From an uncultured delta proteobacterium (lineage in GTDB: Bacteria; Desulfobacterota; Desulfomonilia; Desulfomonilales; Desulfomonilaceae): a stretch of 64,000 nucleotides of DNA. Below are positions 6,937 to 64,000 of the stretch, piece after piece. The stretch covers positions 192,001 through 256,000 of the forward strand of contig CAWBKB010000006.1 of assembly GCA_963789265.1 (NCBI GenBank), in the 5' to 3' direction. Positions within the stretch are counted from its first letter, which is position 1. The number at the start of each line of letters is the position of its first letter. Below the pieces are notes generated by a model that did no database searches, was not told the DNA's origin, and was given only the letters and a program-made list of their open reading frames with translations. The position numbers and the translations under genes are program-made.

Positions 6937-7062
6937 CTAAAATGCCAATGTTGGAAGCCGGAAGGTCGCCACCGTCGTGACTTCCGACGTTAGGGTATCT
7001 GTCCTGCTGTCTTACAGGAGATGCAGTCGATCCGTTCAACAGCCAAACGTCCGGAGTGTCAA

Positions 7063-12857: not shown

Positions 12858-14514
12858 GTGACGCTAGACGGTTTCATTCCCTACGACAGAAGAGCGGCCC
12901 GGCTCTATGACAAACGGAGATGGTGGCTCGGACTGACTCTCGGGGGCATGTTCGACAAAGTCAGTGACATATATCCCACTCAGGAAGCGCTGGTTGGAGG
13001 CGGCAAGCGATATACTTATGAGGAGCTTCGTGAGTGCGTCGATCGGATGGCATGGAGCCTACTGGAGACCGGTTTGCGGCCCGGCGACCGCGTCCTCCTT
13101 CAGCTTCCGAACTGGCCCGAGTTCGTGATTTCTTACTTTGCTTGCCAGAAAGCCGCGCTGATAATTGTATTGCTCACGGTGAATCATACGGCCAGGGAGA
13201 TATCGCATTTGGCCGACCTTACCCGACCAAGTGCCTGGATAGCCCCTGCCCAGTACCGGGGAACGGATTTTCGCGTCCGGTTTGAAGAAGTTCGGCAGAA
13301 ATACCCGGACCTGAAGGTCATCGCTGTCGGCGAAGAAGTGCTGGTAGGCTGTCTGCGTTATGACGATCTCTTCAACACCGGAGCGGACGTCGGAGAGATA
13401 CGGGCCTCCTTGGAAAGAGTATCTCCCGAGCCTACAGACGTGTGCCAGATTCTGCCTTCAGGCGGCACCACCGGACTTCCGAAAGGGGCTCCCCGGACTC
13501 ACAGCGATTATCTTTGCAATGTGGAGTACAAGTCTCGCGCCTGGCACCTGAACGTTACCGACACGTGCCTGGTGGCTGCGACTGTGGGCCACAACCTTGC
13601 TCTCTTAGTTTGCATCACCGGTCCTATTTTTCACGGCGCCAAAGTTGTCATGCTGGATTCCTCTTATCCACGGGATTTTTGCCAAATTGTGCAGGACGAG
13701 AAAGTCACGTGCACCGGCCTAGTTCCGACACTCATGAGCCGCATTGCGTCATTCGACCGACTTGCAGAGTACTGATCTGAGTTCACTTAACAGGATCTAT
13801 GTCGGCGCTGCTTACAGCTCTCCGGAACTGGTTCGGCAAGTCGAAGAAAAAATAGGTTGCCGATACATTAATGCATTCGGTATGGTCGAAGGTCCGTGCT
13901 CTCAAACTCGTCCGGATGCCCCAATGGAAATGCGGTGCGCAACCATTGGCCGTCCGGTTTGTCCTTACGACGAGTTGGTCACGCTGGACCTGGAAGGTAA
14001 GAGAACCGCTCCGGGTGTCGAGGGCGAACTTGCCGCCAAGGGACCCGGCATTTTCACCGGGTACCTTAACAATCCAAACGCGAACAAAGACGCATTTACT
14101 GCGGATGGGTATTTCAAAACCGGAGATCTCGCCGTCATCGACGAGGCCGGGATCATACGAATTACCGGTCGGATCAAGGACATTATCATCCGGGGAGGGG
14201 AAAACATTGCGGCCCAGGAAGTCGAAGAGCTTATCTCGTCGCATCCCCTTGTACAAACTGTTTCAGTGGTGGGGATGCCGCATGCTGATCTGGGCGAAGA
14301 TCTCTGTGCATACATACAGCCTGTTCCCGGAGCGACCATAACCCAGGCGCAGATCGTTGACCATTTGCAGAAGGTCGGGGCGTCACGGATATTCTTCCCG
14401 GCAAGAACCGAATTCGTGAATCAACTGCCCCTGACTGCAGCGGGCAAGGTGGATAAGAAGGTTCTTCGAGCGGAGATAGCCGAAAAACAAAGAGCCGAAG
14501 CAGAAGCGAAATGA
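12858..14514 (+). CDS. Aryl/acyl-CoA ligase (2,3-dihydroxybenzoate-AMP ligase-like), apparent +1 frameshift at ~13773
   Basis: SGGTTGLPKG, FGMVEG, FKTGDL, GRIKDIIIRGGENI and LPLTAAGKVDK motifs. Removing the T after GTAC(13769) gives EYDLSSLNRI. Confidence 0.9.
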
Positions 14515-20638: not shown

Positions 20639-21578
20639 ATGTCGGCAAACTCGATACGTGTGGCCGTGATGGTTCTTGCTGTGACAGCTCTGCTTACGCT
20701 TCCGGTTCTGGGCCTCTCGCTATGTTGTGAACGTTTGGTTGCTCATCTGTGTTTTCGCGGCCTTGGCATCCATGTGGAATCTGTTGGCCGGCTACTCGGG
20801 AATGGTTTCGCTCGGTCAGCAAATGTTTATCGGCTTGGGTGGATATACCCTGGCGGTATTGTCGCTGTACTATGGGATGCCGCTTTCATTGTCGGTTCTT
20901 CTCGGTGGGCTCATATCCACGATCCTGGCAGTAGTTATATCCATTCCGGTTTTCAGGATGAAAGGGGTATATTTCTCCATAGGGACTTGGGTCATTGCAG
21001 AGGCCTTAGGGATCTTTTTCAGCAACTGGGGTTACGTGAAATACGGAATGGGTTTGTTCATTCAGCCTGCATACAAAGTCTCCATGTCTGCCATTTACTA
21101 TGGCGCGGCCTTGCTGGCCATCGGATCGGTTGCTCTCGTCTACTGGTTGCTTCGTTCAAATTTAGGGATCGCCTTGATGGCCATCCGGGACGACGATGTG
21201 GCATCCCAGGCTATGGGCGTCAATATCTTTCGATGCAAGTTCATTTGCTTTCTCATTAGCGCTTTTGTGACAGGGACCGTAGCCGGAATATTGTATTTGA
21301 ACGCGGTATTCATTCAACCGTTTGACGCTTTCGGAATCGGTTGGACCGTGAAGCTGTTGTTTATAGTAATCATCGGAGGCATTGGAACCGTGGAAGGGCC
21401 GATTGTAGGCGCGGTAATCTTTGTGCTCCTCCAACAATACCTTTCGGAATACGTCGGATACAATCTCATCATCCTCGGTATAATCACCATTACTGCAGTT
21501 CTTTTCGCTCCCAGTGGCGTTGTGGGTGCCGTCCGGGAGAGGTACCGTCTTGAACTATTTCCGATTCGCCGTCAATAG
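20639..21578 (+). CDS. Liv-type ABC permease (LivM-like), apparent +1 frameshift at ~20705
   Basis: WNLLAGYSGMVSLGQ and IIGGIGTVEGP motifs. Removing one G in ccggttc joins ATG 20639 to the 20727 frame (PFWASRYVVNVW). Confidence 0.88.
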
Positions 21579-21630
21579 CCGCCGTCAGAAGTTACGTCTT
21601 TATCAATACACCTCAGAGGAGGGATCGAAA

Positions 21631-23353
21631 ATGATTGACAGAAGCATCTCGTCGATGAGAGCACTCAGACCCGACAGCAATTTCGACAAATCAATCTTTT
21701 GGTTTAGGGATGACCTCCATCAACCCTACACCATATCACCCATGGGCATGACTACTATACAGGCTCACCATGCCTGGGGCTATCATGTCGCCGCGGAGGT
21801 CACTAACCTCCCGCCTTCAAAGGGTGGGCATGTAAAAGTTTATAAAGGGAGGGTCTATATCGGATTTGCACTGATTGGCGATGTGGCGGAAATTGCCGAA
21901 CGAGAGCCGGAATTCACTAAATTGATCGAATACTGTCTGGGCCATTGGGATGATTACTATCAAAAGCATATAAAAGAAGTCATCTCAAATTTGGACACAC
22001 TTAACGGTGTCGATACCGATAAATTATTGCTGCCGCATCTGTTGGAGCACTTAAAACGCGCGGAAATATTAGATAGACGAAATTGGGAAATTCATTTCTG
22101 CCTAATGTATCCCGCGGACGCGGTCTATTTTACTTTCGAGGACTATTGCAAAAAGCATGGCCTGGAAGAAAAAGATTTCGTGAACATGCTCAGAGGCTTC
22201 GATAGCATCGCCACACAGACTGATGAGGAGATGTGGAACCTTGCTAAATTTGGAGAGGAGTGTGGCATAAAGGATTTGTTGTCCTACACGAACTCGGAAG
22301 AGTTATTGGAAGAACTAAAGAAGCACTCCGAGGCCAGGCCCTGGCTGGACAAATTTTATCGTTTCCTCAACATTTACGGCAATCGAGTAGTGGCTGCTCA
22401 CCTCGACGTCACTACTCCAACCTGGATTGAAGACCCTACTCCTGTTCTGGATACGATAAAAGGCTATTACAATCGGATCGAGGGCGGCTGGGATTTCTTT
22501 GAATCCAAGCAGCAAATTCGGGACGATAGAAGCAAGACGATCGCTGAATTTGAGGCCCGCTTGAATGACGATGCGGAGAAGGAGAACTTCAGGCAATTGC
22601 TCAAAGCGGCCCAGGGGGTCTATGCCTTCCAGGAAGATCATGGTTTCTATATAGACCAGGGTTCGACCGCCGCTTTGCGAAATGCCATCATCGGTTGCGG
22701 AAAGAGGCTGTTCCGACGAAAACTTATCGACCAGGTAGATGATGTTTGCTATCTTACCTACCCGGAACTAGTGGAGATTATGGAGGCTCTGGTCTACAAC
22801 GAAAAAGTTGCCAAGTATCACTACGGGGCACTGGTTCCGAATCTCATCAAGGAGAGGAAGGAAGACGCCCGGATGGCCACCGACTCGGATGCGCCTCTAA
22901 CTTTTGGAAATGTTCCTGAGAAGATGACCGATCCTATTGGCATTAAAGTGTTTGGGATCATTGATGAGATATTGCATCCCAAAGGAGAACGTAACATCGA
23001 AGAGAGACTGGAAGGCTTCCCCGGGTCTCCGGGCATTGTCGAAGGCCCCGCGAAAGTCATAATGGATTACAAGGATTTTCAGAAGGTGAAAGCTGGAGAG
23101 ATTTTGGTATGCCCCTACACTGGAACTGCCTGGACACCGCTTTTTGTGAAAATCGGCGGTGTTGTCACGGACACGGGCGGTATGCTGACCCACGCGGCCA
23201 TTGCCGCACGAGAGGTACAATATACCCGCTGTTGTGGGTACCTGGAATGCGACCAGATCGATAAACGACGGCGACATCATAAGGATTGACGGCAATGTGG
23301 GAATTGTCGAGGTAATAAAAAGAGCAGCGGCACAGGAGAAGGCAGACGCCTAA
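21631..23353 (+). CDS. PEP-utilising enzyme: substrate-binding domain plus phospho-His swivel domain (phenylphosphate synthase alpha-like), apparent +1 frameshift at ~23214
   Basis: GSPGIVEGPA, AWTPLF and GGMLTHAAIAARE (catalytic His). Removing one G before GTAC(23215) gives EYNIPAVVGT...IRIDGNVGIV, stop at 23351-23353. Confidence 0.88.
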
Positions 23354-27160: not shown

Positions 27161-28334
27161 ATGGATGAAGTGGTCTTGACGAGTGCGCTGAGAACTGCGC
27201 AAGGCGATTTTGGTGGCACGCTAAAGAGCTTGCCCGTGACGGAATTGGCCCGGCTGGTGATAGAAGAGGTAGTCAAAGGACTGGACAGTGCCTCGACCAT
27301 AGACAAAGTGATTTTCGGCAATTGTTTTTCCCCTCTGGAACAGAACGTTGCCCGTTTTTCAGCATATCAGGCCGGCGTCCCGGAGCATGTGCCCGGATTC
27401 ACGATCAATGGCGCGTGCGGCTCCTCAATGCAGGCAGTCATCAGTGCCGCACAGGCCGTGCAATGTGGCGAGGCGGAGGTGGTGCTCGCAGGCGGGGCTG
27501 AGAGCATGAGCAATGCCCCGTACATAATGGAATCGGCTCGATGGGGCCAGCGAATCAGGCACCTCCAAGCGTACCGATCTGCTTTGGAAAGCAATGCAGG
27601 AGTGCCCGATTGGTGTCGGGATGGGTTTGACCGCAGAGAATCTGGCTGAAAAGTACGGGATATCACGCGAAGAACAGGATGCTTTCGCGGTCCAGAGCCA
27701 TCAGAAAGCAGCACGGGCCATTCAAGAGGAAAAATTCAATACAGAGATCATCCCTGTTCCCGTCACGAGACCGAAGAAGGAGCCGATCCTTTTCGATACC
27801 GACGAACACGTCAGGCCGGATGTTTCTATCGAAAAGTTGGCCAAGCTACCGGCTGCATTCAAGAAAGACGGTACGGTTACAGCGGGAAACGCATGCGGCA
27901 TGAATGATGCCGCCGCGGCCGTGATTGTTACCGGCCCGAAAAAAGCTCGGGAACTGGGTTTGGCACCTCTGATGCGAATTAGGGGTTACCGTGTGGTGGG
28001 GGTGGACCCGAATATCATGGGCATCGGTCCGGTGCCGGCCATACGTGGCGCCCTCGTGAACTCAGGCCTCGAACTCGGCGATATAGATCGTTTTGAAATC
28101 AACGAGGCTTTTGCCGCACAGTATCTCGCATGCGAACGAGAGCTTGGCCTGGACCGATCCAAAGTCAACGTTTATGGTAGTGGAATAGCTTTGGGGCATC
28201 CTGTAGGTGCAACCGGTTGCCGGCTACTGGTAACGCTTTTCCACGAGATGATTGCCGATAACCTCACCCTCGGTGTAGCTTCTCTGTGCGCAGGCGGAGG
28301 AATGGGTTTTGCGGTGGTGCTGGAGCGCGTGTAG
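27161..28334 (+). CDS. Thiolase (acetyl-CoA C-acyltransferase), apparent +1 frameshift at ~27575
   Basis: NGACGSS, NEAFAAQ, GHPVGATG and LCAGGG motifs. Removing one C after GTAC(27571) gives QAYDLLWKAMQE. Confidence 0.92.
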
Positions 28335-35408: not shown

Positions 35409-35566
35409 GGAAGGGCCTATTGCAATTGTTTATAGTATTATCAATTGAATGTGCCTGCGCACAGGCGTCTCATCGCGGCGCCCCATTGCCCAAGGTAAGG
35501 ACTAATCGGCCTTTTTCGTTCTGTAACAATGGATAATCCGCCAATACTTTGAGAAGGGAGAGAACG

Positions 35567-36773
35567 ATGAACCGTAAGCGGAATCTGGCACTAATTGGAT
35601 TCTTCATAATCTGTCTTGGACTCATGTCGGTCACGACTGCGTTTTCTGAAGTCCGGGGCGTCAGCAAGGACAAAATCGAGTTAGGTATGATCCTTGTGAA
35701 AACCGGGCCGGTGGCGGCCCTCGGGCTCCCCGACGGTTGGGGAGTACAAGATGTAATCTCCTCGATCAACCAGGAAGGAGGGATCGCCGGAAGGAAGATA
35801 GATTTCATTTGGGAAGACGATCAGTGGAAAACCCCTCTGGCCATCTCCGCATTCAACAAGCTGATTTACCGTGACAAAGTGCTGGGGATAGTCACCATCG
35901 CCGGCACGGCACAGAATATCGCGCTAATGGATCAGATCGACAAGGATAAGGTGGTTACTATTCCGGACGCTCTGGCGACGGAATTCTACAAACCCTACAA
36001 ACCTTATATATTCGTGCTGGGCGCTACCTACGAAACTCAGGTCAAGCTCATGTTCGACTACATTATGAAAGACCTGAAGGTAAAGAACCCGAGAATAGGC
36101 GTGGTTTATGCTGAGACTGAGTTCGGCAAGAAAGGCCTCGAAGCGGCTCGGAAGAGAGCAAAGCAGTACGGCTTGAAGCTGGTTTCCGAAGTGGTTCTTA
36201 ACACCTGCGCGGTGGATGCCAGCTCACAAGTGCTGTCGCTGAAAAAAGACCATGTGGACTACGTGGTGACTTGCAATCTGGCCCCGTCGACCATTACGTT
36301 CCTAAAAACCGCCGAAAAGTACCGAGTATCGGCCCACGACTTTCGGCGTAAACTGGGCTTGCGACAATGTAGTCGTAAAGGCCTGCGGGGCTGCGGCGAA
36401 GAATTACATAGGTGTAAATTTCGTCGGCGGATGGACGGATGACAGTCCGGGCATGAAGCGAGTCCGAGCACTGGCGAAGAAAAATGGTCGTGATCCTGAC
36501 AAGATGCTTACTTCGCTGTACATACACGGCGTAGCAATGGCCACCGTATACGCTGAAGGACTGAAGCGGGCAGGCAAAGATCTGACTTCGGATTCGTTCA
36601 AAAAGGCCCTGGAGACCCTCAAAGACTTCGACACCGGGGGTATGATTCCTCCTATAACCTTCACATCAACCAGTCACGCGCCAAGCCCTCTTGCGCGACT
36701 TTATCGCGCGGACCCGGACAAAGGCGCTATGATACCGATAACAGGCTGGAGGAAGCCCTTGGATTTGAAATAG
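35567..36773 (+). CDS. Liv-type ABC substrate-binding protein, tandem paralogue, apparent +1 frameshift at ~36323
   Basis: Colinear with copy 1. Removing one C after GTAC(36319) gives KYEYRPTTFGVNWACD, matching KYDYWPMTFGINWSCD in copy 1. Confidence 0.9.
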
Positions 36774-52532: not shown

Positions 52533-53507
52533 TCAAAGGGAAGATTGGAGCACCACGTATGAATTGTTGTCCAAGAACAATGACTTTGGCGTTTGATTAT
52601 CTGCTTCTTCGCCCGAGAACAGGACTCTGAGAAATGCCTTTGCCACGCGGGAAGGCCTGCTGTCCTTTTTCATCACCACGTCTATGGGTAGCGTAAGCGG
52701 ACCTTCTCTAAGCGGAATAGCTCGAAGGGAGCCTTTAGCCAGATCCGCGGCCACTCCCATTCGAGGCAGGAACGCGACAGCTCTTGACATTTTCACTAGT
52801 TCTTTCATGAAGTCCACATTGCTTGTTTCAACGAACACCGAAGGTACAATTCCCCGCTCTTTAAGTGCTGCTTCAACAACTCGCCTGACCCCCGATCCCA
52901 CTTCCCGCAATATCAGTTCTTGTCCTTTGAGATCTTCAATGGAAACCGTCGGCTTGCGGCACAACTTGTGCCCAGCCGCGGCCAAAAAGACGAGTTCGTC
53001 TTGAATGAACGGTATTATCTTCAAACTCGGGGTATAATCAACCCTCCCCACGATTGCCAGTTCGTTCAGGTTCTCCAAAACGCCCCGAACCATGTCCGCC
53101 GAGCTGCCTTCGTTCACCTGAATCTGTACCTTGGGAAATGATTCCCGAAATCTCGGGATGTAGCGGGCCAGAAGAAATCGCACCAGCGGCTTAGTACTGC
53201 CTATTCTCAGAATTGCCGGTAAAGCCGACTCAGGATGACTGAGAAGTTCGTCGGCTTCTTCCACCAGCCCGAATAGTCTCTTGGTGATCGTATGCAGCCT
53301 TTTGCCGCATTCAGTCAATTCAAGCTTTTTCTTCCCCCTTACAAACAGTAGTGTATCGTATCTCATTTCCAGTGCCTTGATTTGAGCACTTACGCCGGGC
53401 TGGGTGATGAACAATTGCTCGGCGGCACGGGAAACACTTCCACAATTGGCTGCGAAGTGGAAGGCTCTGAGCTGGTTCAGACTCAGGTCGATTCCCATGC
53501 CTAACAC
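52533..53507 (-). CDS. LysR family regulator (CysL/CmpR-like)
   Basis: SVSRAAEQLFITQPGVSAQIKALE HTH; ILREVGSGVR motif. Confidence 0.93.
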   Translation of the reverse strand: MLGMGIDLSLNQLRAFHFAANCGSVSRAAEQLFITQPGVSAQIKALEMRYDTLLFVRGKKKLELTECGKRLHTITKRLFGLVEEADELLSHPESALPAILRIGSTKPLVRFLLARYIPRFRESFPKVQIQVNEGSSADMVRGVLENLNELAIVGRVDYTPSLKIIPFIQDELVFLAAAGHKLCRKPTVSIEDLKGQELILREVGSGVRRVVEAALKERGIVPSVFVETSNVDFMKELVKMSRAVAFLPRMGVAADLAKGSLRAIPLREGPLTLPIDVVMKKDSRPSRVAKAFLRVLFSGEEADNQTPKSLFLDNNSYVVLQSSL

Positions 53508-53520
53508 CTTGGGGGGAGAT

Positions 53521-53556
53521 ATAACTTTTTTTTATATATTCATAAAATTAAGTGAT
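53521..53556. promoter_or_regulatory. Two LysR T-N11-A boxes in the divergent promoter
   Basis: ATAA-N7-TTAT (53521-35) and ATAA-N7-TGAT (53542-56). Confidence 0.62.
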
Positions 53557-53707
53557 TTGACATGCAAAGCTGAATCCCGTAACCCTGATCTTGAAGTGAA
53601 AATCTCCTCGTCGGAACACTGTTCACCGAATAAACCATTCTACAACAACTGCCTCTTCTCGTCAAAAACGCATTTGGCCTTCGGCCGAAAACAAGGAGGA
53701 TACATAG

Positions 53708-55333
53708 ATGGCTGAAGAATACGATGGCATAATCATCGGCGCCGGACCGAACGGATTAACTGTAGCCGCGTATCTGGCCAAAGCCGGTTTGAAGATTCTC
53801 GTACTGGAAAGGAGATTTGAAGCAGGAGGTGGGCTGGCCACCGAGCAAGTCACTTTGCCGGGCTTTCTCCACAATACCCACGCCGTCTATATGCCCATGG
53901 TCGATTATGCCCCGCCTCTAACAGATTTCAGCGAATACTTGACTCAAGACTACGACCTGAAATTCGTATTTCCGCCGCTGGTCATGGCCATGCCGTTTGC
54001 AGACGGTTCTTCCCTTTGTCTCTATCAGGATATTGAAAAGACCTGTAAATCAATTGCCCAGTTCTCCAGCAAGGATGCTGAAACCTACAGGAAGATTGCC
54101 GACCGCTACAGAGTCCTGACGGAAGATTTCCTCGGGCCTGCCACGTACGAAGAGGCCAAACCGGCCTTCGAGCAGATGGTTACCCTCCAACAAACCGATG
54201 TGGGGCGGGAGATCACCGAAATGACGGAAAAGACTCCACGGGAAATCATCGACACTCTGTTCGAGAACGACAGGGTAAGATGTCTCTTTCTATACCTCTC
54301 TTGCATGTGGGGCCTGAACTACGATCTGGAGGGAGTGAGCTATCTTGTTCCGCTGCTCATCAACCGTGCGATAAACTATCGTTTGGTTGTCGGCGGCTCT
54401 CACCATCTTGCCCATCTCTTCACGAAGGTGCTCTATCGGAATCGCGGCATGATCATCTCACCGGTAACTTTGAAGAGAGTTATCGTGAAGGACGGAACTG
54501 CGGTCGGCGTCGAGTTGGAGGATGGAACTGTTTACAGGGCAGGTAAATTCGTGGCCAGCAGTCTCGACCCTTATCAGACATTTCTAAAGTATGTCGGCCC
54601 GGAAAACCTGGAGGACCGATTCGTTACTCGGATCAACGACTGGAGATGGGAATCTTCCAGTTTCTTTCACGTCCATCTTGCTCTGAACGGTCGCCCGAGA
54701 TTCAAAGCGGCATCGGCCAATCCCGATTTGGACAACGCCTTGATTACCGTGGTCGGATACGAGACCGAGGAAAACCTCATCCGGCACTATGATGCAATCC
54801 ACAAGGGCGAGCTTTCCCCGGCTGGCTTCAACTGCTGCTTTCCTTCAATTCACGATCCTAAACAGGCTCCCGCGGGTAAGAATACGGCACTGATCTCGCT
54901 GCACGCCCCGCATGACCTCAAAGAGGGCGGTGCCGAGCGCTGGTATCGAATCAGGCAACAGGAAGCGACCCGATGCATCGATCTCCTGCGGGAGTACGCG
55001 GACGGTCTTGGGCCGGAAAATATACTCTGGCGCTATATAACAACACCTCTGGACATCGGAAACAAGTTCGCGGACATGGTCAAGGGATCGTACAAACAAG
55101 GAGCCTACTTGCCACTACAGATGGGATACCTCCGTCCCAACGAAGACTGCTCCCAACACGCCACCCCGATTAAGAATCTTTACGTTTGCGGAGCCAGTAC
55201 CTTCCCGGGTGGGCTCATCACCTTCGGTCCCGGATACAACGCCGCCAACAAAATTGCAGCGGATTTGGGTCTGAATCGGTGGTGGAGTGAAGCGGAGTGC
55301 GTTCTCAAGGCCAAGGCCAGAGGAACGTTATAG
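53708..55333 (+). CDS. Phytoene-desaturase-like (PYROXD2-type) FAD oxidoreductase, subunit 1
   Basis: IIGAGPNG Rossmann motif, [14 protein letters not shown] and [17 protein letters not shown] motifs. Confidence 0.88.
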
Positions 55334-55343
55334 GAGACGAATC

Positions 55344-55604
55344 ATGAAGGTCAATTCGACGGGTTTGGGTAAAACGACGATGGTGGCCAGCTTCGCCCAC
55401 CTCGAGAAAGTGAACGGCGAGCCGGGCGGAGCCATGAGACTGAACATAGAGGCTACGGAGCCCGTTCACTGGTCCATCAAGGCCACGGTCGGAGGTGACG
55501 ATCTGAGGAGGTTCGCACGTCTCATGTTGAAGCCTTCAATTCTTTTCCATGTCCTGTGGCTGCTGTGCTTCGGGAAAAAGCTGACTCCGCCGGAGCCCCA
55601 TTAA
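55344..55604 (+). CDS. Small hypothetical protein (86 aa) with hydrophobic C-terminus
   Basis: AGGAG RBS; MKVNSTGLGKTTMV...ILFHVLWLLCFG; fits tightly between two flavoprotein genes. Confidence 0.75.
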   Translation: MKVNSTGLGKTTMVASFAHLEKVNGEPGGAMRLNIEATEPVHWSIKATVGGDDLRRFARLMLKPSILFHVLWLLCFGKKLTPPEPH

Positions 55605-55640
55605 CAGGCCCCGCTTTCGACGAGAATAGGAGGTTTCTCC

Positions 55641-57307
55641 ATGGCTGAAAAAGCGTATGACGCAATCGTGGTCGGTGGTGGCCATCATGGAACGATCATA
55701 GCCTGCTATCTCCAACATGCAGGCATGCAAACCGTTATTTTTGAGAGACAGCACGAATTGGGCGGAGGAGCCTGCGGTGAAGCTCTGCCTTTGCCCGGTT
55801 TTTTCTGCAGAATCCCTGTGCACATTTTACCAGATTCTACGGACACCCTTCGTATGAAGATTTCAGACTGAAGGAAAAGGGCCTCGTTTACATTTATCCC
55901 GACCAGGGTGAAGGGATGATATACGACGACGGCGTGAGCTTCCTGGGTTACAACGCTTGGAGGGTTGTCGATGCGGACACAGGGAGGGCAGAGTTCGACG
56001 AAAAGAGCGCACAGAAAACAATCGACCAGATCGCCCGCTTCTCCCAGAGAGACGCGGACACTGCCTACGAACTCCTGAATACCTACCGCAATAAGTGGCG
56101 GGACAGCTTCAATGAGTGGAAATTCAATCCTCCAACTCCTTGGGGTGTTCCTGATGCGTTTGAGCGGCTCATCAACGATCCTGATGTTCCGATACCTCCG
56201 GAGTACCAGTTCTACACCTCCCAACAAGTTGCGTACGATCTCTTTGAAAGCGATTACTTGCGGACGCTCTTCATGAGGTCCTGCATGACCTCAAGCGGCA
56301 TTTTCCCCAACGATTGCATCGGAATCTATTGGACTCTGCACACGCTGGGTTTAATCCTCTCCTGGGAGCCCGCGGCCATAGCAATAGGAGGCACACACGC
56401 CATAACCCACGCGCTTCAACGAGCCTTCAGCTCGATGGGCGGGGAGTTCGTAGTTGAAACCCCGGTGGAAAGGGCAATCATCGAAAATGGAAAAGCGGTG
56501 GGGGTCAAGCTGGCCGACGGCCGCGAAATCGCCGCAAGAAAAGTCGTGGTAAGCGATCTCAACACTCCTCAGACATTGCTTCAGCTCATTGGTGAGGAGC
56601 ATCTGTCATGGAAGATCGCCAACAGGGCCAGGAATGTCCTCTTCAACAGGGCCCAGCTCTTCTGGGGAAATTTTGCGCTCCACGAGCTTCCCGCGTACAC
56701 GGCCGCCAAAGACAATCCTGAGATCGGCCTGCCCCCCAGGCTGAACTGGGGACCCAAAGACGCGGATTATTTTGCTACTCGCCATCAGGCCGAGATTTTC
56801 GTGAAGGGCATCCCCGAAAAGCTCGTCTGCATTGTCGCTCCTGACAGCATTTGGGACAGAACCAGAGCCCCTGAAGGGAAACATACCATACTCATCGAAC
56901 AGTTCACCGCACCCTATCGTTTTTTCAATGACAACGAATGGCTGAAAATGAAGAGGGACATTGTCAAGATTATGCTTGAGCAGTGGTCCTGGTACGCTCC
57001 CAACATGACCGAGGACAACCTCATTGAAGCGCACATTACCACCCCTATGGACGTGCAGATGCGCAACATCAACATGCCGCAGGGTGGTTGGAGCATGGAG
57101 GATACGATCGGCTCGCAGTTCGGGCGCATGAGGCCGTTTCCCGAGATAGCCAATTACCGCCTGCCTGTGCAGAATCTCTACATCGCCTCTGCCGCCACTC
57201 ATTCCGGTCCGGGGATAGGAAAGGGCAGTAGCTACAATTGCTTTAAGGTCATAGCGGAAGATTTCGGTCTACCCAAGATCTGGGAACAAAAGGGAAGGCC
57301 CTACTGA
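55641..57307 (+). CDS. Phytoene-desaturase-like FAD oxidoreductase, subunit 2, frameshift in a T6 run at ~55800
   Basis: VVGGGHHG and ELGGG motifs. After the shift LQNPCAHF... runs into ORF 55916, which carries GGTHAITHAL and LPVQNLYIASA. Confidence 0.85.
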
Positions 57308-57320
57308 TCGGGAGGAAACT

Positions 57321-58077
57321 ATGGGGCGGCTTGACGGTCGTGTGGCCATTGTCACCGGTGCCGGCAAAGGATTGGGCAAGGCCTTTTGCGTAAGACTCGC
57401 TCAGGAGGGCGCAGACATAGTCGCTGTGACGCGAGCGGATGCCGACGGCCTGGAAAATACCGGAAAGGAGGTGAGAGCTCTCGGCAGAGAAGTGTTGCTT
57501 AGCATGGTGGACGTCTCCAGCGAAGAAGACACTCTTAGAATGGCGCGGGAGGTGTCCAACCGGTTCGGGCGAATAGATATCCTGGTGAACAATGCCGCGT
57601 GTTACTGACGGGGTCACCAGAAAGCCTTTCACCGAAATATCCGTCGCAGATTGGGATAAGATGATGGCTGTGAACGTACGAGGCCCTTGGCTTTGTGCTC
57701 GAGCTGTGTTTCCTGCCATGAAACAATCCGGAAAAGGGAAGATCATAAACCTTGCATCTGAAGTCTTCTTCACCGGTTCACACGGATTCGCTCATTACGT
57801 GTCGTCAAAGGGCGGTGTCGTCGGCTTGACCCGGGCCTTGGCCGTAGAGTTGGGACCTCACGGAATATGTGTGAATGCAGTGGCTCCGGGGTATACCGAT
57901 ACAGAGGCGAGTCGGACAATTGCCGAAGTAAACAAGTATGACACGAGCAAAACCCCACTCAAAAGACTGGAGAAACCGGAAGACGTGGTGGGGATCGTAG
58001 CCTTTCTGGCTTCTGACGAAAGTGACTTCATAACGGGCCAAACTATGCTGGTGGATGGAGGGAGAGCCATGCACTGA
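57321..58077 (+). CDS. SDR oxidoreductase, apparent +1 frameshift at ~57603
   Basis: TGAGKGLG and NNAA in the first frame; HYVSSK, NAVAPG and VDGG in the second. Confidence 0.87.
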
Positions 58078-58300
58078 CAAGGACAAGCACGTCCCCGCGC
58101 AGAGGGTCGCTTACTCCTCTTCCGCTTTTTCACGAAGCTGTCTCGAAAAGCGGGCTTTCCTCTTGCGGCTCTCCCTACCTCGAACTCTTTGACAGGCCCT
58201 CCTCCGCGCGAGGCTGCCCATATAGTCAGATGGTTTCGGAAACCTCAGGTTAATCAGTTACACCCATTTCCCATACGTCCGCACAGAGGAGGAGCTAATC

Positions 58301-59983
58301 ATGAAGGTTTACGATGTGGTGCCCGGCTTGGAATTCGACCCTGAACACGATTTGGCCCAGTCTCCCGCGTGGTTCCTGGACGGAACCCATTCCGTTCCCC
58401 CCTGGACCCCCATGTTTGGGTGGTTCTGGATCAATTTCTGCAGACACGGCATGCAGTACGGCGCCCAAGAGTTGTCTCTGCCCACGGTCAAGGGCTGGGA
58501 CTGGCGCTTTATGAACGGTGGCGGCTATCTCACGCTTCTTCTGGTAAAGAGCGAGGAGGAGAAACAGAGGAGAGAAGCTCAATTCAAGAAGGCCATATTA
58601 CCATTCATCCAGGATTATGACGGGATGTGGAACGGCTTTGTCAAGGAAATCCTCGGGCGGTACGAGTCGCTAAAGTCACTGGACTTGGACAAAGCCACCA
58701 GTACCGAGCTTCTGGACAATTTCGAACAGACCATCAACACCTGCCGGCGCATGTGGGAAATCCACATGTACATGATGTACGGCACTTATACCGCTTACAT
58801 TCTCTTTGAAAACATGTGCCGTGAACTCGCCGGAATCGACGACACATCGCCTGTCTTCCACAGCGTTGTTTCAGGATTCGATAACAAAGTTTTCCAGGTT
58901 GATCGCCGACTCTGGGAATTTTCCAGACGAGCGGACGCTGACGGACTGTCTAATGTGTTCACGAAGAACGAAGCTCCGGAAATCAGGGGAAAACTGGAAG
59001 AGTCTGAAAAAGGAAAAGCATTCCTAAACGATTTTATGGCGTTCATGAACGAGGACGGCTGGCGTATGCAGCGCATGTCCGAGATCAACCTGCCGACCTG
59101 GGTGGAAGATCCCACACCTGCGCTGGGAATGGTAAAGCAGTTCATCCTCAAGGGAGGTTCGTTCAATCTCGATCAAGAACGCCAAAAGTTAAGCATCAGT
59201 CGCGAGGCGGCAGAAAAGGAGGTGTTGACCAAAGTCCCTCTCCAGCAGCGAGGATGGTTTGAGCAGTTAATGCGTCTTGCTCAAAAGAGCGGCATTTTCA
59301 GCGAGGAGCACGATCACTACCTGGATCTCTACACGCACGCCATGATCCGGCGCAGCGCTTTGGGGCTCGGGCGGCGGTTCGTTCAGGTCGGAGCCCTGGA
59401 CGATCCCGAAGACGTATTCTTCTTGATACCGGATGAGATTCGTCGTGCAGGTATAGCACCGGACCAATTCGACCTTCGATATATTGTGGAACGCAGGAAG
59501 GCGGACTGGGAGGAGTGGCAAAAGAAACCGAATCCTCCGGCGATTCTCAGGGAGGGATTCGACCTGGATCAAGCTATGGCGGTTCTCGTCAAATCCAACG
59601 ATCCCATTGCTCTGAAGGTGGTCGTAGGTGCCATGCCGCAGGTGCGTCCTGAATTGAAGGCCGACCTGTACGGAACCTGCGGCTCACCGGGAGTGGCCGA
59701 AGGTACGGCCCGGGTGATCCTGAGCGAGGACGAGCTTTACCTGGTGCAGGAAAACGACATTTTGGTCGCGGCGAGCACTTCTCCGAGCTGGACACCGGTC
59801 TTCTCCATGATCAAGGGCGTGGTGGTGGATCGCGGGGCAAGCTTGTCCCACGCTGCCATCGTGGGAAGAGAATACGGGATACCCGTTGTCATGAATGTCT
59901 TCGAAGGGACCGCCAAGATAAAGTCCGGCCAAAGGATCAAGGTGGATGCCAACATGGGCGCCGTATATGTTCTGGACAAGTGA
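58301..59983 (+). CDS. PEP-utilising enzyme, phenylphosphate synthase alpha-like subunit
   Basis: WFLDGTHSVPPWTPMFGW, GSPGVAEGTA, SWTPVF and GASLSHAAIVGREYGIP motifs. Confidence 0.9.
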   Translation: MKVYDVVPGLEFDPEHDLAQSPAWFLDGTHSVPPWTPMFGWFWINFCRHGMQYGAQELSLPTVKGWDWRFMNGGGYLTLLLVKSEEEKQRREAQFKKAILPFIQDYDGMWNGFVKEILGRYESLKSLDLDKATSTELLDNFEQTINTCRRMWEIHMYMMYGTYTAYILFENMCRELAGIDDTSPVFHSVVSGFDNKVFQVDRRLWEFSRRADADGLSNVFTKNEAPEIRGKLEESEKGKAFLNDFMAFMNEDGWRMQRMSEINLPTWVEDPTPALGMVKQFILKGGSFNLDQERQKLSISREAAEKEVLTKVPLQQRGWFEQLMRLAQKSGIFSEEHDHYLDLYTHAMIRRSALGLGRRFVQVGALDDPEDVFFLIPDEIRRAGIAPDQFDLRYIVERRKADWEEWQKKPNPPAILREGFDLDQAMAVLVKSNDPIALKVVVGAMPQVRPELKADLYGTCGSPGVAEGTARVILSEDELYLVQENDILVAASTSPSWTPVFSMIKGVVVDRGASLSHAAIVGREYGIPVVMNVFEGTAKIKSGQRIKVDANMGAVYVLDK

Positions 59984-60061
59984 GCAACCTTTAGCATAAG
60001 CGGGCACCGGGTTTTGGGCGTTTCCCGGTGCCCTGCCGCCACAGAAGGAGAGGGGACTCCG

Positions 60062-61084
60062 ATGCCGGAACAATGGATTTACTGGTTCGAAGAGTTGGGA
60101 AGCGAACATAATAATCTGGTGGGGAAAAAATGTGCCAATCTTGGGGAACTCACCAAGCTTGGATTACGGGTTCCGCCGGGTTTTGCCATATCGGTGGACG
60201 GGTATGAGAAGTTCATGGCCGAAACCGGAGCCGGTACCGAAATCAGACGTTACGTGCAGAGTAAGCGGGATCTCTTGACACACGTGGACCGACAGGTGGA
60301 GGCAGGTCGTGAAATCAGAGGGATTATCGAATCGAAGAAGATGCCTTCCCAAATGAGGGACGAGATCCATCGTAGATACGAATTTCTCTGCGGACGGGCG
60401 GGGATGCCCGATCTGCCGGTCGCAGTGCGATCCAGCGGTGCGGTGAGCATGCCCGGCCAGATGGAGACCTTTCTGAACGTCAAAGGTAAGGCTGACGTAA
60501 TCGAAAAAGTTATCCGAGTTTGGGGCAGTGCTTTCACCACCCGCGCCATTGCCTTCCGCTTGGAAAAAGGGATGGAAGTGGAAAAGGCCCCGATTGGGGT
60601 CGCGGTGCTCAAAATGGTCAATGCAAAATGTGCCGGAGTGGCGTTGACCGTGTTACCGACCACAGGCGATATGAGCAAAATAATCGTTGAAGGAAATTGG
60701 GGTCTTGGTGAGAGCGTGGTCAGCGGGGAGATGACTCCGGATCAATTTATCGTAGACAAGGCCTGCGGTGAGTTCGAGTGCACCGTGAACACCAAAAAGA
60801 AAATGATCTGCCGACATACGTCGGGTACTCAGGTGGTTCAGGTGCCCAAGGAGAGGCAATGCCGGCCTTGTCTTGAACCCGAGGAACTACAAGAGATAGC
60901 TCGCATTGCAAAACAGGTTGAATCTCACTTCGACCTGCCCCAGGACATGGAATGGGTCATAGACGAAGATCTCGGATTTCCTGAAAGCATTCTATGGGTG
61001 CAGACCCGACCGGCCAAATACTCAATGAAAACTAATGAATCCGAGTACCTGGCAGAACTCATGTCTCGTGTCTTCAAGGTGTGA
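60062..61084 (+). CDS. PEP-synthase nucleotide-binding subunit, phenylphosphate synthase beta-like
   Basis: VGKKCANLGEL, AVRSSG, PGQMETFLNV, NWGLGESVVSG and QDMEW motifs. Confidence 0.9.
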   Translation: MPEQWIYWFEELGSEHNNLVGKKCANLGELTKLGLRVPPGFAISVDGYEKFMAETGAGTEIRRYVQSKRDLLTHVDRQVEAGREIRGIIESKKMPSQMRDEIHRRYEFLCGRAGMPDLPVAVRSSGAVSMPGQMETFLNVKGKADVIEKVIRVWGSAFTTRAIAFRLEKGMEVEKAPIGVAVLKMVNAKCAGVALTVLPTTGDMSKIIVEGNWGLGESVVSGEMTPDQFIVDKACGEFECTVNTKKKMICRHTSGTQVVQVPKERQCRPCLEPEELQEIARIAKQVESHFDLPQDMEWVIDEDLGFPESILWVQTRPAKYSMKTNESEYLAELMSRVFKV

Positions 61085-61109
61085 ACGGTGCCCTTGTGAG
61101 GAGGATCTC

Positions 61110-61769
61110 ATGACCATCCTTTTTACCCAGTCCTGGGACGTGATTCCGGGAAAATTCGATGAATACTCCGAGTTCATGACGAACGAATATAATCCTTCCC
61201 TCGAGAGTCTGGGAATCAATCTGCTGGGGGGGTACTACGTTGCAGTCGGTCAAGGCCCGAGAATCAAAGCGGTTGCTTCTGTAGAGGAACACGATTACCT
61301 GCGAAAGATCTTGGCCACCGATGCGTACTGGATTATATATTCCAAACTCATGAGCTTTGTATCCGAATACTACAGCAAACTGTGGGTATCCACAGGCCGA
61401 CTGCTTGAGGAGCCTTACAGGATTCAAACCAGCGCCTGGAAGTTCAATCAGTACTACAATATAGTTCCAGGAACGGAACAAGAGCATTATCACTTCGTCA
61501 AAGAGGAATGCATTCCGGGGATGAAGGAATTGAAGGTGCCCATAACCGGAACATGGAGGCTGGCAATCGGCAACGGTCCCACAATCTTGGGTGAATGCAG
61601 CGCCCGTAGCATTGTGGAAATTGCCACGGCCATTGACACTTCAGATTTCAGGCGATTGATCCGCAGAATGAAGAAAAATTATGCCACACATTTCAGCAGC
61701 AAAATACTGGCGCCTACCGGAAGAATCGAAATTCCGTTCTTCATGAAAGAGATGATGAAAGGATTTTAA
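61110..61769 (+). CDS. Hypothetical protein, probably two tandem dimeric alpha/beta-barrel (NIPSNAP-like) domains
   Basis: Internal repeat: FTQSWDVIPGK...GGYYVAVGQGP versus FNQYYNIVPGT...GTWRLAIGNGP; GAGGAGG RBS. Confidence 0.65.
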   Translation: MTILFTQSWDVIPGKFDEYSEFMTNEYNPSLESLGINLLGGYYVAVGQGPRIKAVASVEEHDYLRKILATDAYWIIYSKLMSFVSEYYSKLWVSTGRLLEEPYRIQTSAWKFNQYYNIVPGTEQEHYHFVKEECIPGMKELKVPITGTWRLAIGNGPTILGECSARSIVEIATAIDTSDFRRLIRRMKKNYATHFSSKILAPTGRIEIPFFMKEMMKGF

Positions 61770-61771
61770 CC

Positions 61772-62092
61772 ATGTATGTGCGTATGACTTTTTTCAAAGT
61801 AAAGGACGGGAAAATGGATGCCCTCCGCGATCTTTATAACAAGGATGTCATCTCGGCCCACAAGAATCACAAAGGTATAAGGTTCGTGCACCTCTTGGAA
61901 TGTCTGGACGACAAAAATGAAGGAATATCCGTCACCGCATGGGATACGAAAGCTGACCTGGATGCATACGAGGCAAGCGGCGATTATGGGAGACTGCGCG
62001 GTCTATTCAACGAAATGTACAGCGCCGAGCCCGGGCTCAAGTCCTATGAGGTCACCGCAAGTTCCGAGCCGATCCTTTTAAGAATGTTCTGA
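61772..62092 (+). CDS. ABM (antibiotic biosynthesis monooxygenase-like) dimeric alpha/beta-barrel protein
   Basis: MYVRMTFFKVKDGK...KGIR...ISVTAWDT...YEV pattern, 106 aa. Confidence 0.72.
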   Translation: MYVRMTFFKVKDGKMDALRDLYNKDVISAHKNHKGIRFVHLLECLDDKNEGISVTAWDTKADLDAYEASGDYGRLRGLFNEMYSAEPGLKSYEVTASSEPILLRMF

Positions 62093-62117
62093 TCCGGAAT
62101 AAAGACAGGGAACACTT

Positions 62118-64000
62118 ATGAAAGAGGTAAACTTCACCCTGAACGGTACTCCTCAAACCGTGCTCGCGGAAGACGATCTGGTGCTTCTAGACTTTTTGCG
62201 AGAAGAGAAAGGATTGACGGGGACGAAGCAATCCTGCGATCGCCAAGGGCAATGTGGGGCCTGCACGGTAATCGTCAACAAGAAGGCCGTCCGTTCTTGT
62301 CTAACTCGGGTTGCGAGCCTGAGTGGCGCTGAAGTCATATCTATAGAAGGACTGGGCACTCCGGACAATCCGCATCTCATTCAAAAGGCGTTTGCTCTCA
62401 GCGGAGCCATTCAATGCGGTTTTTGCACTCCAGGGATGATTATGGCGTCGAAGGCCCTCTTGGACCGTGATCCCGATCCGGATACCGACATCATCAAGAA
62501 GGCCCTGTCTCATAATCTCTGTCGATGTACCGGCTACAAGAAGATTATCGATGCGGTCAAGCTCGCGGGTAGGCTGCTGCGCGGGGAAATCCGGCCCGAC
62601 GATCTGTATCCTGATGCAAACGAGGGGATGATAGGAGTCTCGTTGCCTCGTCCTACTGCCTTGCTTTTGGCAACTGGCAAGGCTCTTTTTACGGCGGACA
62701 TAAAGATGGAAGGGGTACTCGAGCTTGCAGCCGTGCGCTCACCTCATGCGCACGCCTTGATAAAATCCATCGACACATCGCGGGCCGAGGCGGTCCCGGG
62801 TGTAGTGTGCGTAATTAACGCCAAGGACATCAAGGGAACCAATCGGCTTAGAGAAGATCAACCCGTTCTTTGCGATTACAAAGTTCACGTGATGGGCGAC
62901 GCTGTCGCAGCCGTGATTGCCGACACCAAACAGAGTGCTCTGGAAGGCGCACAAGCTGTCGCGGTCGAATACGAACCCTTGTCGGAAATTCGCACGCCGG
63001 AAGAAGCCGTGGACGCCGGCAGTCCCCAAGTTCATGAAGGGACTGAAAATCTTTGCTACACCCATCCCCAGATCAAAGGGGACGCACAAACGGCGTTGGC
63101 AAATTCTCACTCGGTGGTGGAAGCACAGTTCTCGACTCAGCTTATCCATCAGTCGCCGCTGGAACCGGAAGCCTCTTTGGCGTATTTCGAAGCCGACCCG
63201 GACGGCGATGAGCCTCAACTGGTGGTAGTCGGCCGAAGCATCAACATCCATTACCACTTGAAAGTCCTGCAAGATGCTCTGGGATGGGAGAATATGCGGT
63301 ATGAGCAGGCTTTCATCGGCGGGCAGTTCGGAATTAAGATGGACATCACTGCCGAAGGGTTAGCAGCCGCAGCGGCTCTTCACGTACGACGTCCGGTAAG
63401 ATATGTTTGCAGCCTCACCGAGTCCATGTGGATAACTACCAAACGGCACCCATTCGACATGAAGGTGCAACTCGGAGCCGATCGTGACGGGAAGCTCACC
63501 GGTTACTCGATTGAGTTCACTGTTGAAAACGGGGCATACGTTTCAGCGGGCAAATCGGTTATTAATCGCGCCCTGTATATGTTGAGCGGCTCGTATCATA
63601 TACCCCACGTACACGCAATGGCGAGCCTCGTCTACACCAACAATGCGTGGGGAGGAGCCGCCCGAGGAGCGGGACCGCCTCAAGTAAATTTCGCCCTTGA
63701 GTCTGTCATGGAACTCTTGGCGGCCAAGCTGGATTTGGATCCTCTGGAATTTCGCCTCATGAATTCCCTGGAGCCCGGCCAATCTATCTCTACAGGCCAG
63801 GTGGTGGATGAATGGCCGTATGCCGTATGCCTTGAGACCCTCAGAAAACACTATGAGAGAGCTCGGAGAGATTGTGCCTCGGCCCGCGAAGGTCGATTCA
63901 GGCGAGGAGTGGGACTCGCGGGAGGAAGCTTCGGAATTGGCAGGGGCGGTCCGGACCGCTCTCAGGTAGCCGTGGAACTCATGCCTGACGGTGGCCTCAC
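62118..64000 (+). CDS. Xanthine-oxidase-family molybdoenzyme, fused 2x[2Fe-2S] and Mo-pterin domains (aldehyde oxidoreductase-like); runs off the window
   Basis: Absent from the ORF track because no stop is reached. Manual translation gives SCDRQGQCGAC, QCGFCTPG, NLCRCTGY, GGQFGIK and ARGAGPPQ, all in the frame of ATG 62118. Confidence 0.92.
   Translation, partial: MKEVNFTLNGTPQTVLAEDDLVLLDFLREEKGLTGTKQSCDRQGQCGACTVIVNKKAVRSCLTRVASLSGAEVISIEGLGTPDNPHLIQKAFALSGAIQCGFCTPGMIMASKALLDRDPDPDTDIIKKALSHNLCRCTGYKKIIDAVKLAGRLLRGEIRPDDLYPDANEGMIGVSLPRPTALLLATGKALFTADIKMEGVLELAAVRSPHAHALIKSIDTSRAEAVPGVVCVINAKDIKGTNRLREDQPVLCDYKVHVMGDAVAAVIADTKQSALEGAQAVAVEYEPLSEIRTPEEAVDAGSPQVHEGTENLCYTHPQIKGDAQTALANSHSVVEAQFSTQLIHQSPLEPEASLAYFEADPDGDEPQLVVVGRSINIHYHLKVLQDALGWENMRYEQAFIGGQFGIKMDITAEGLAAAAALHVRRPVRYVCSLTESMWITTKRHPFDMKVQLGADRDGKLTGYSIEFTVENGAYVSAGKSVINRALYMLSGSYHIPHVHAMASLVYTNNAWGGAARGAGPPQVNFALESVMELLAAKLDLDPLEFRLMNSLEPGQSISTGQVVDEWPYAVCLETLRKHYERARRDCASAREGRFRRGVGLAGGSFGIGRGGPDRSQVAVELMPDGGL

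Follow-up and report, generated by a model that had tools for sequence, protein, structure and literature searches.

A LysR-linked operon with a two-component dikinase and a CtmAB-like flavoprotein pair from an uncultured Desulfomonilaceae bacterium: a candidate for oxygen-independent oxidation of methyl groups on phenolic phosphate esters

The Cre pathway for 4-cresol, reportedly described by Du et al. 2016, is said to oxidise the methyl group of an aryl phosphate with the O2-dependent cytochrome P450 CreJEF, an NAD-dependent aldehyde dehydrogenase and the phosphatase CreD. Two-component dikinases of the subfamily PpsAB, CreHI and HpeHI phosphorylate phenols and are related to rifampin phosphotransferase, and a catalytic histidine motif was described for PpsA, CreH and HpeH (passages of PMC12167813). 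Limonene dehydrogenase CtmAB of Castellaniella defragrans oxidises an allylic methyl group to the alcohol, which an alcohol dehydrogenase and an aldehyde dehydrogenase convert to the acid; CtmA and CtmB share 27% identity (passages of PMC4109377). The sterol delta-24 desaturase system (delta-24-SD) of Sterolibacterium denitrificans has subunits that are 26% identical to each other, and the consensus for covalent flavin attachment is G-F-L/R-X-N/S-T/L-H-A (passages of PMC11061730). Elements of all these systems were identified in an operon of an uncultured delta proteobacterium of the family Desulfomonilaceae (Desulfobacterota; assembly GCA_963789265.1). The window, meaning the whole analysed stretch of 64,000 nucleotides, covers positions 192,001 to 256,000 of contig CAWBKB010000006.1. 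The operon and its divergent LysR gene occupy the window from position 52,533 to its end.

The operon may enable a methyl or alkyl side group to be oxidised without oxygen on a hydroxylated, most likely phenolic, compound that is held as a phosphate ester. This proposal is made with slightly less than even confidence. In its best reading, the operon would encode an oxygen-free equivalent of the Cre route for 4-cresol, with all chemistry deduced from family assignments. In the first step, the dikinase (58301-61084) would phosphorylate the hydroxyl group with ATP via a phosphohistidine in its swivel domain, and a double-barrel protein of 219 amino acids may assist it. Flavoprotein 1, an 86-amino-acid protein and flavoprotein 2 would then use water to convert the allylic or benzylic methyl group oxidatively into an alcohol. 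A short-chain dehydrogenase/reductase (SDR) would form the aldehyde, and a molybdenum enzyme of the MOP type would form the acid, with TusE/DsrC-like and NifS-like genes probably serving its cofactor. In the last step, a phosphatase encoded elsewhere would take off the phosphate. Phosphatase-type genes were present in the clusters of relatives only, as ARMT1-like (L012, L064), HD-domain (L082) and HAD proteins (L042).

Two-component dikinase and the conserved gene set

The kinase is placed by its domains, its motif and published descriptions in the two-component phenol-dikinase family (PpsAB/CreHI/HpeHI), with a corresponding predicted activity. The translation of component 1 around the catalytic histidine reads GASLSHAAIVGRE, and H517 was invariant in 28 sequences. 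The histidine motif of the swivel domain fits the GGxT(S/C)HAA type and lies within about 50 residues of the C terminus. Residues 226-559 aligned to residues 553-867 of rifampin phosphotransferase 5fbs (phmmer, E 1.1e-26), and residues 1-225 remained unmatched. Component 2 matched the stand-alone 387-amino-acid PDB chain 9goj with 2.2e-52. An earlier note, made from the DNA letters of this stretch, had named a phenylphosphate-synthase-type dikinase, and domains and motif agree with that kind of kinase.

Within this family, the window kinase belongs, as judged from sequence, to a clade distinct from canonical phenylphosphate synthase. Its component 1 reached at best 218 bits with PRK08296-type models, below the cutoff of 578. 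On contig C3 of the same genome, a paralogous locus encodes a PpsA with 967 bits (cutoff 723), PpsB, UbiX and a phenylphosphate carboxylase beta subunit with 580 bits (cutoff 469). The window kinase is 26% identical to this paralogue in component 1 and 37% in component 2. Since the C3 paralogue passes its cutoff and sits with a carboxylase, the canonical phenol locus lies elsewhere in the genome and the window kinase represents a different clade. The C3 locus (C3:975001-990000, L087) comprises a LysR gene divergent from UbiX, a 131-amino-acid open reading frame (ORF), PpsA, PpsB, phenylphosphate carboxylase beta and a CoA ligase; on its other side are a menaquinone-type UbiD and a UbiA-like prenyltransferase.

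Canonical anaerobic activation of phenol or aniline, by phenylphosphate synthase and subsequent UbiD-type carboxylation, would account for the PpsA-then-PpsB gene order and for the gene sizes. It is refuted by gene content and is left with next to no probability. The earlier note had seen no UbiD, CoA ligase or phosphatase in the operon, and none was found in the operon or in the contig 20 kb downstream of the window. The search for ubiD or ppc genes just downstream gave none within 20 kb, and the only two UbiD-family genes of the genome (PF01977) are both on C3, beside the PpsA that passes its cutoff. The third gene also differs. The third subunit of phenylphosphate synthase, PpsC, carries two CBS domains. 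The gene following the kinase here encodes the 219-amino-acid barrel protein, which was rejected as a PpsC homologue because it has a tandem ferredoxin-like barrel fold instead of CBS domains.

Best Foldseek matches of the barrel protein were the two-domain 'putative monooxygenase' structures 3f44, 3mcs and 2pgc together with coproheme decarboxylase folds. With TM values of 0.58-0.65 and about 10% identity, these matches indicate a fold but no function. A complex prediction with residues 1-450 of component 1, component 2 and the barrel protein had a score of 0.00 and gives no evidence either way. A second copy of the barrel gene, 76-79% identical, was observed past the LysR gene and on its strand in three close relatives (approximately L014:754-1500, L015:3171-3900 and L016:3432-4100). 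By tblastn, no second copy was found in the genome of the window.

Relatives of kinase component 1 are widespread. At E <=0.001, 1217 were present among 8000 scored candidates, and the matches listed (120 clusters) had 80-90% identity. Named sources of the listed relatives included Desulfomonilaceae, Desulfomonile tiedjei, Thermodesulfobacteriota and Syntrophobacteraceae, besides others; the D. tiedjei protein had 87% identity to component 1. A relative of component 1 was encoded in 180 of 207 candidate stretches from species-representative genomes, and 80 loci were kept for comparison. Presence of each gene was counted over those loci that had enough flanking sequence. Component 2 followed component 1 in 69/71 loci and the barrel protein followed the kinase in 61/66. 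The SDR was present in 62/77 loci and flavoprotein 1 in 31/61. Where the flanks reached 6 kb or more upstream and 9 kb or more downstream, 39/41 loci had a flavoprotein of the type of flavoprotein 2 near the kinase. The small barrel protein of the ABM family was present in 24/64 loci. Of the 70 genomes available for the host family, 39 held a match at E <=1e-150 (22/36 high-quality genomes; 17/26 genera), indicating a common but patchy trait.

The kinase, the barrel protein, a CtmAB-type flavoprotein and an SDR form a recurring module in Desulfobacterota and Alphaproteobacteria. Frequent additions are a molybdenum or tungsten aldehyde oxidoreductase (AOR) and a phosphatase-type protein. Variant clusters were distinguished by their redox genes. 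L042 and L047 combine SDR, kinase and barrel protein with a membrane Fe-S/CCG oxidoreductase, EtfA/B and a single flavoprotein of the second type; L042 additionally has a MOP-type enzyme, and its HAD protein is beside a second kinase. L012 and L064 contain one or more flavoproteins, SDR, a tungsten-type AOR, kinase, barrel protein and the ARMT1-like phosphatase. Locus L082 of Roseiarcus (Alphaproteobacteria) has a TetR regulator, a flavoprotein of the second type, EtfB/A, a membrane Fe-S oxidoreductase, kinase, barrel protein, SDR and the HD-domain protein. The earlier note's expectation that the gene set is kept together elsewhere was thus borne out by synteny over the 80 loci. No paper describing this gene combination was found in the literature searched, outside of which most subscription-journal papers lie. 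The earlier note's view of an oxygen-independent, apparently undescribed pathway other than phenol carboxylation holds, and UbiD/ppc genes are missing downstream.

Two further kinase pairs were observed in the genome. A paralogous set on contig C1 encodes kinase components with 41% and 50% identity, a MOP-type enzyme with 38%, a flavoprotein with 50% and an SDR with 71%. The region C1:1863001-1883000 (L086) holds a major facilitator superfamily transporter, two acyl-CoA-dehydrogenase-like genes, kinase component 1, an isochorismatase and a MOP-type enzyme, then an interrupting DDE transposase, a flavoprotein without the flavin motif, an SDR and kinase component 2. The window itself has a distant pair, a PPDK_N protein and a 591-amino-acid PEP-utilizers protein (7021-8037 and 21514-23289), 33% and 28% identical to their operon counterparts and encoded about 13 kb apart. 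Genes for an amidohydrolase_2 protein, an old yellow enzyme-type reductase, a CoA-ligase, an SDR, an acyl-CoA dehydrogenase and an ABC transporter surround this pair.

Flavoprotein pair and molybdenum enzyme

The flavoprotein pair resembles the CtmAB/delta-24-SD family, to which it was likened by the published motif and the mutual identity of the subunits. Flavoproteins 1 and 2 share 25% identity over 489 amino acids. The covalent-flavin motif of the GFLHNTHA type was kept in 31/31 orthologues of flavoprotein 1. In flavoprotein 2 the motif is GF[LI]QNPCAH, with cysteine at the position of the flavin-bearing histidine in 30 of 35 sequences of this type with a recognisable motif. Histidine occupied this position only in five alphaproteobacterial sequences (GFRQNPHAH). 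The cysteine may indicate a Cys-linked flavin or a subunit that is not flavinylated.

Both flavoproteins had partial crtI_fam and CrtO matches far below the cutoffs for carotenoid enzymes; for flavoprotein 1, CrtO gave 184 bits (cutoff 1000) and crtI_fam 82 bits (cutoff 238). A role in carotenoid biosynthesis was rejected on these scores. A protein-atlas look-up of flavoprotein 1 returned generic 'phytoene desaturase family' names only. A benzene-linked flavoprotein from a 2026 paper was also considered; it is a glycolate-oxidase/VAO-family protein in the part of that paper concerned and irrelevant here. Ring oxidation or desaturation by the flavoproteins, with the SDR, had been suggested in the earlier note. 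The two paralogous subunits and the flavin motif are hallmarks of the allylic C-H-oxidising CtmAB/delta-24-SD family, and the pair does not resemble a ring desaturase.

The 86-amino-acid ORF was detected by tblastn in 31 loci with 42-98% identity, always between the two flavoprotein genes. It had no Pfam or NCBIfam match, and its AlphaFold2 (AF2) model was poor (predicted local distance difference test, pLDDT, 65.8). A three-part CtmAB-type enzyme, made of a His-motif subunit, a Cys-motif subunit and the 86-amino-acid partner, might hydroxylate the methyl group of an aryl phosphate after the action of the kinase/barrel trio. This enzyme model is tentative and is proposed with low confidence.

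With a terpene and a sterol as the precedents for the flavoenzyme family, a terpenoid-alcohol reading retains some weight. Here, the operon would belong to a pathway for an isoprenoid, terpenoid or sterol alcohol, with the flavoenzyme acting on an allylic terpenoid position and the dikinase on an unreactive, for example tertiary, hydroxyl group. The phosphate would be eliminated as in 25-hydroxysteroid kinase/lyase, the barrel proteins would take the lyase or isomerase role, and oxidation to the acid would be completed by the SDR and the molybdenum enzyme. Cofactor-free alpha+beta barrels often catalyse reactions of the lyase or isomerase type, and the constant association of the barrel protein with the kinase (61/66 loci) is otherwise unexplained. 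Beta-oxidation-type genes are located upstream in the window. The two flavoenzyme relatives that have been characterised work on a terpene or a sterol side chain, and phosphorylation followed by elimination is known in anaerobes, according to the cited passages. However, the characterised two-component dikinases in the cited passages act on phenols, and family scans of the operon revealed none of the hydratases, lyases or CoA ligases that the known terpene and sterol routes use. We consider the terpenoid pathway unlikely.

The molybdenum enzyme is likely a MOP-type aldehyde oxidoreductase that catalyses the aldehyde-to-acid step. Its single polypeptide comprises the domains Fer2, Fer2_2, Ald_Xan_dh_C, MoCoBD_1 and MoCoBD_2 and matched the aldehyde oxidoreductase model NF045668 from position 4 to 904 of 905. 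In L012 and L064, the two relatives annotated at this cluster position, a tungsten AOR takes its place, and this replacement together with the MOP architecture makes the aldehyde-to-acid step likely. No molybdenum enzyme was found in the examined stretches of the alphaproteobacterial loci. Taken together, architecture, AOR replacement and alphaproteobacterial absence fit aldehyde oxidation better than they fit a hydroxylation step on a phospho-intermediate or an N-heterocycle.

The earlier note had proposed another order of steps, namely ring desaturation, phosphorylation of the new hydroxyl group and hydroxylation or oxidation of the phospho-intermediate by the molybdenum enzyme, for instance on an N-heterocycle as for HpdA of Ensifer. 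The Ensifer precedent is real: PEP-utilizing and PPDK-like proteins are essential for the conversion of 3-hydroxypyridine by the molybdenum hydroxylase, according to passages of that source. Contig C1 of the same genome likewise carries a kinase pair together with a MOP-type enzyme, a flavoprotein and an SDR, which also favours this scheme. The molybdenum enzyme, however, is without the FAD and SRPBCC components of HpdA (no SRPBCC or carbon monoxide dehydrogenase (CODH)-type FAD subunit was detected by family scans in the operon or downstream), and it matches the MOP model over its full length. Furthermore, tungsten AOR replaces it in L012 and L064, it was present in only 11/54 loci, and the flavoprotein pair bears the hallmarks of the CtmAB family. 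Methyl oxidation on a phosphate ester fits better than this order of steps, which is judged improbable.

Downstream of the molybdenum enzyme are a TusE/DsrC-like gene, a NifS-like class-V aminotransferase with a frameshift about 1.7 kb past the window end, a 124-amino-acid ORF, a molybdenum enzyme of the dimethyl sulfoxide (DMSO) reductase family and an IS1595 transposase. The triad of MOP enzyme, TusE/DsrC-like protein and NifS-like desulfurase (C6:254118-258306) is conserved beside the operon in several relatives and is duplicated at C1:1441796-1445943 with 72%, 66% and about 80% identity. It may form a dedicated sulfur relay for the molybdenum cofactor. The DMSO-reductase-family enzyme (C6:258576-261955) has 672 amino acids, is cytoplasmic-looking and scored 229 bits with the formate dehydrogenase alpha model (cutoff 666). 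The transposase lies behind it. Among the 80 loci, this molybdenum enzyme was matched only in L085 (89% identical). The genome is unusually rich in genes of xanthine-oxidase-family molybdenum enzymes: the 4-hydroxybenzoyl-CoA reductase alpha model matched 35 times, never above its cutoff.

Operon layout, integrity and regulation

ORF listing and Pfam/NCBIfam scans gave nine same-strand genes on the plus strand, divergent from the LysR gene on the minus strand (Table 1). Intergenic gaps computed from the coordinates were 2-78 nucleotides, with the exception of 223 nucleotides between SDR and kinase. This layout of nine mostly tightly spaced genes agrees with the earlier note. Its overall gene set also stood, apart from the 86-amino-acid ORF and two frameshifted genes, which it had overlooked.

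Table 1. Coordinates of the LysR gene, upstream boxes and operon genes in the window
Feature	Position	Strand	Characteristics
LysR-family regulator	52533..53507	-	324 amino acids from GTG, ATG 9 nucleotides inside; PF00126 3e-19, PF03466 2.5e-44
LysR-type box 1	53521..53535		Dyad ATAAC-N-TTAT; T-N11-A at 53522-53534; symmetric in 5/6 flanking pairs
LysR-type box 2	53556..53568		Dyad T-N11-A overlapping TTGACA, a -35-like hexamer, at 53557-53562
Flavoprotein 1 (FAD1, alpha-like)	53708..55333	+	541 amino acids; CrtI/COG1233 fold; Pfam NAD_binding_8, Amino_oxidase; motif GFLHNTHA
Conserved 86-amino-acid ORF	55344..55604	+	Between FAD1 and FAD2 genes; no known family
Flavoprotein 2 (FAD2, beta-like)	55641..57307	+	Split over two frames at T-run 55799-55804
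SDR	57321..58077	+	Split over two frames near 57598-57607; adh_short 1-86 (N half), 89-191 (C half)
Kinase component 1 (PpsA/CreH/HpeH-like)	58301..59983	+	560 amino acids; PF00391 5.4e-22 at residues 483-553; motif SLSHAAIV
Kinase component 2 (PpsB/CreI/HpeI-like ATP-grasp)	60062..61084	+	PF01326 1.6e-84, profile 2-322 of 328; start set by relatives
Tandem ferredoxin-like alpha+beta barrel protein	61110..61769	+	219 amino acids; sub-threshold NIPSNAP Pfam match only; AF2 pLDDT 86.6
ABM-family single alpha+beta barrel protein	61772..62092	+	106 amino acids; PF03992 1.2e-11
MOP-type molybdenum enzyme	62118..64000, past window end	+	888 amino acids in contig; 2x[2Fe-2S] and Mo domains, no FAD domain

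The frameshift in flavoprotein 2 is very probably an assembly error. Contigs of the runs X1, X3 and X4 were all two letters shorter at 55799, which restored the frame (...PGFLQNPCAHF...). Of the X1 contigs, 29/33 were at least 99% alike to the window; X3 and X4 were more distant. Orthologous ORFs of flavoprotein 2 were unbroken at 553-561 amino acids, except for one ended by a contig edge. The SDR frameshift is probably of the same origin. At 57607, X3 and X4 contigs were one letter shorter and X1 gave no cover, and in relatives both halves of the SDR are in a single frame. Other genes of the window are split as well, a thiolase (27161-28334) and a periplasmic binding protein (35549-36773), and an AMP-binding CoA-ligase (13442-14514) is split or truncated with a fragment at 13744-14514, suggesting assembly-wide indel errors. 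Among the 80 related loci, gene splits occurred in 9/21 that share one isolate-name prefix versus 0/59 others. Based on the run contigs and the unbroken relatives, the frameshifts are most likely assembly errors and the operon was taken as intact.

A decaying, non-functional copy would instead have real frameshifts in flavoprotein 2, SDR and NifS-like gene, with the function moved to the paralogous C1 cluster. Three split genes in about 14 kb, the paralogous set on C1, the IS1595 transposase downstream and the position of the SDR frameshift site outside X1 cover are consistent with decay. The X1 contigs without the two extra letters, the split genes elsewhere in the window and the restriction of splits in relatives to one isolate-name prefix argue against it, as do all remaining genes, which are open and 80-98% identical to relatives. 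Decay of the operon is regarded as very improbable.

The LysR protein would control the operon via two conserved dyad boxes. At 45% identity or higher, a divergent LysR gene was seen in 27/58 loci whose upstream sequence reached 6.2 kb or more. In the 200-nucleotide intergenic region, the bare T-N11-A pattern occurred at chance level (18 seen vs 16.8 expected), and dyad symmetry was found in only two of the 18 instances, 53522-53534 and 53556-53568. Across 12 aligned upstream regions, the core columns of box 1 were invariant in 12/12, and so was the block TTTGACATG of box 2. In most relatives, box 2 is the palindrome TTGACATGTCAA. Both dyads lie in invariant or nearly invariant blocks, so the two T-N11-A boxes pointed out in the earlier note stand.

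Proposed pathway compared with described systems

Several observations weigh against methyl oxidation on a phenolic phosphate ester. A phosphorylated phenol should hinder hydride abstraction from a para-methyl group, which makes the proposed flavoprotein step on an aryl phosphate a weak point. Characterised relatives of the flavoenzyme act on terpene and sterol only, and none on aromatics, in the cited passages of PMC11061730 and PMC4109377. In flavoprotein 2, cysteine stands where the family consensus puts the flavin-bearing histidine (window 55790-55830). Family scans detected no electron-transfer flavoprotein (ETF) genes in the operon or the downstream contig, and the phosphatase is absent from both. 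The molybdenum enzyme scored 752 bits with NF045668 and did not reach the cutoff of 1100. The genes for MOP, TusE-like and NifS-like proteins accompanied the core in only 11/54, 8/51 and 7/50 loci, respectively, with MOP counted at 50% identity or more. Finally, the SDR frameshift could be real, since X1 does not cover the site.

If the proposed pathway is correct, phenolic compounds would undergo methyl oxidation by a 'phosphorylate first' strategy that uses neither oxygen nor fumarate addition nor a flavocytochrome of the p-cresol methylhydroxylase (PCMH) type. The CtmAB/delta-24-SD family would be widened from terpenes and sterols to aromatics, and a role would be assigned to a widespread kinase clade (180/207 stretches; 39/70 host-family genomes). 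The three-part flavoenzyme, if confirmed, would open a route to cresols that lie beyond quinone-methide chemistry, such as m-cresol. Formation of 3-hydroxybenzoate from m-cresol by anaerobic methyl oxidation was reportedly observed decades ago, without identification of an enzyme. The gene set presents well-defined targets for enzyme studies and could mark where alkylphenols are turned over in anoxic soils, sediments and groundwater.

Among kinase systems, PpsABC with phenylphosphate carboxylase of Thauera aromatica and other phenol degraders shares the two-component architecture and the gene order. It differs in the adjacent UbiD, which is missing here, in the third protein, here an alpha+beta barrel, and in the PRK08296 cutoffs, which are not reached here. 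The hydroxyphenylethanone kinases HpeHI and AcvAB of Rhodococcus and Sphingobium are likewise two-component dikinases with the catalytic histidine near the C terminus; according to the passages concerned, a biotin carboxylase and a phosphatase follow and the hosts are aerobes, whereas no carboxylase follows here. HpdA with orf9/orf10 of Ensifer adhaerens HP1 also ties PEP-utilizing and PPDK-like proteins to a molybdenum enzyme. In the corresponding part of the source, HpdA has separate molybdopterin cytosine dinucleotide (MCD), FAD, [Fe-S] and SRPBCC components, and separate FAD, [Fe-S] and SRPBCC forms are absent here. The Desulfovibrio gigas MOP (NF045668) has the same single polypeptide with two [2Fe-2S] domains and molybdenum domains and no FAD domain; the enzyme of the operon stays below the cutoff of this model and is adjoined by TusE/DsrC-like and NifS-like genes.

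With CtmAB and delta-24-SD, the operon shares a pair of CrtI-fold flavoproteins of low mutual identity (25% here; 27% and 26% in the passages cited above) and the N-terminal covalent-flavin motif, here in flavoprotein 1. CtmAB with GeoA/GeoB of C. defragrans, as far as described in the cited part of the source, also oxidises a methyl group without oxygen and then proceeds through alcohol and aldehyde to the acid, a sequence that is proposed here. Unlike these systems, the operon is without a ferredoxin/reductase pair (CtmEF), has the 86-amino-acid ORF between the subunit genes, holds cysteine at the flavin-histidine position of the second subunit and couples the pair to a kinase.

The Cre pathway, located in Corynebacterium glutamicum, is matched by the CreHI-type kinase and by the alcohol dehydrogenase and aldehyde-to-acid steps in the cluster, which are proposed here. 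In place of the enzymes of the P450 route, the operon encodes the CtmAB-like flavoenzyme, a Mo/W aldehyde oxidoreductase and the double-barrel protein. Family scans gave neither a P450 nor a CreD-type phosphatase gene in the operon or 20 kb downstream. The hosts of the gene set differ from C. glutamicum in being, as judged by record names, strict anaerobes.

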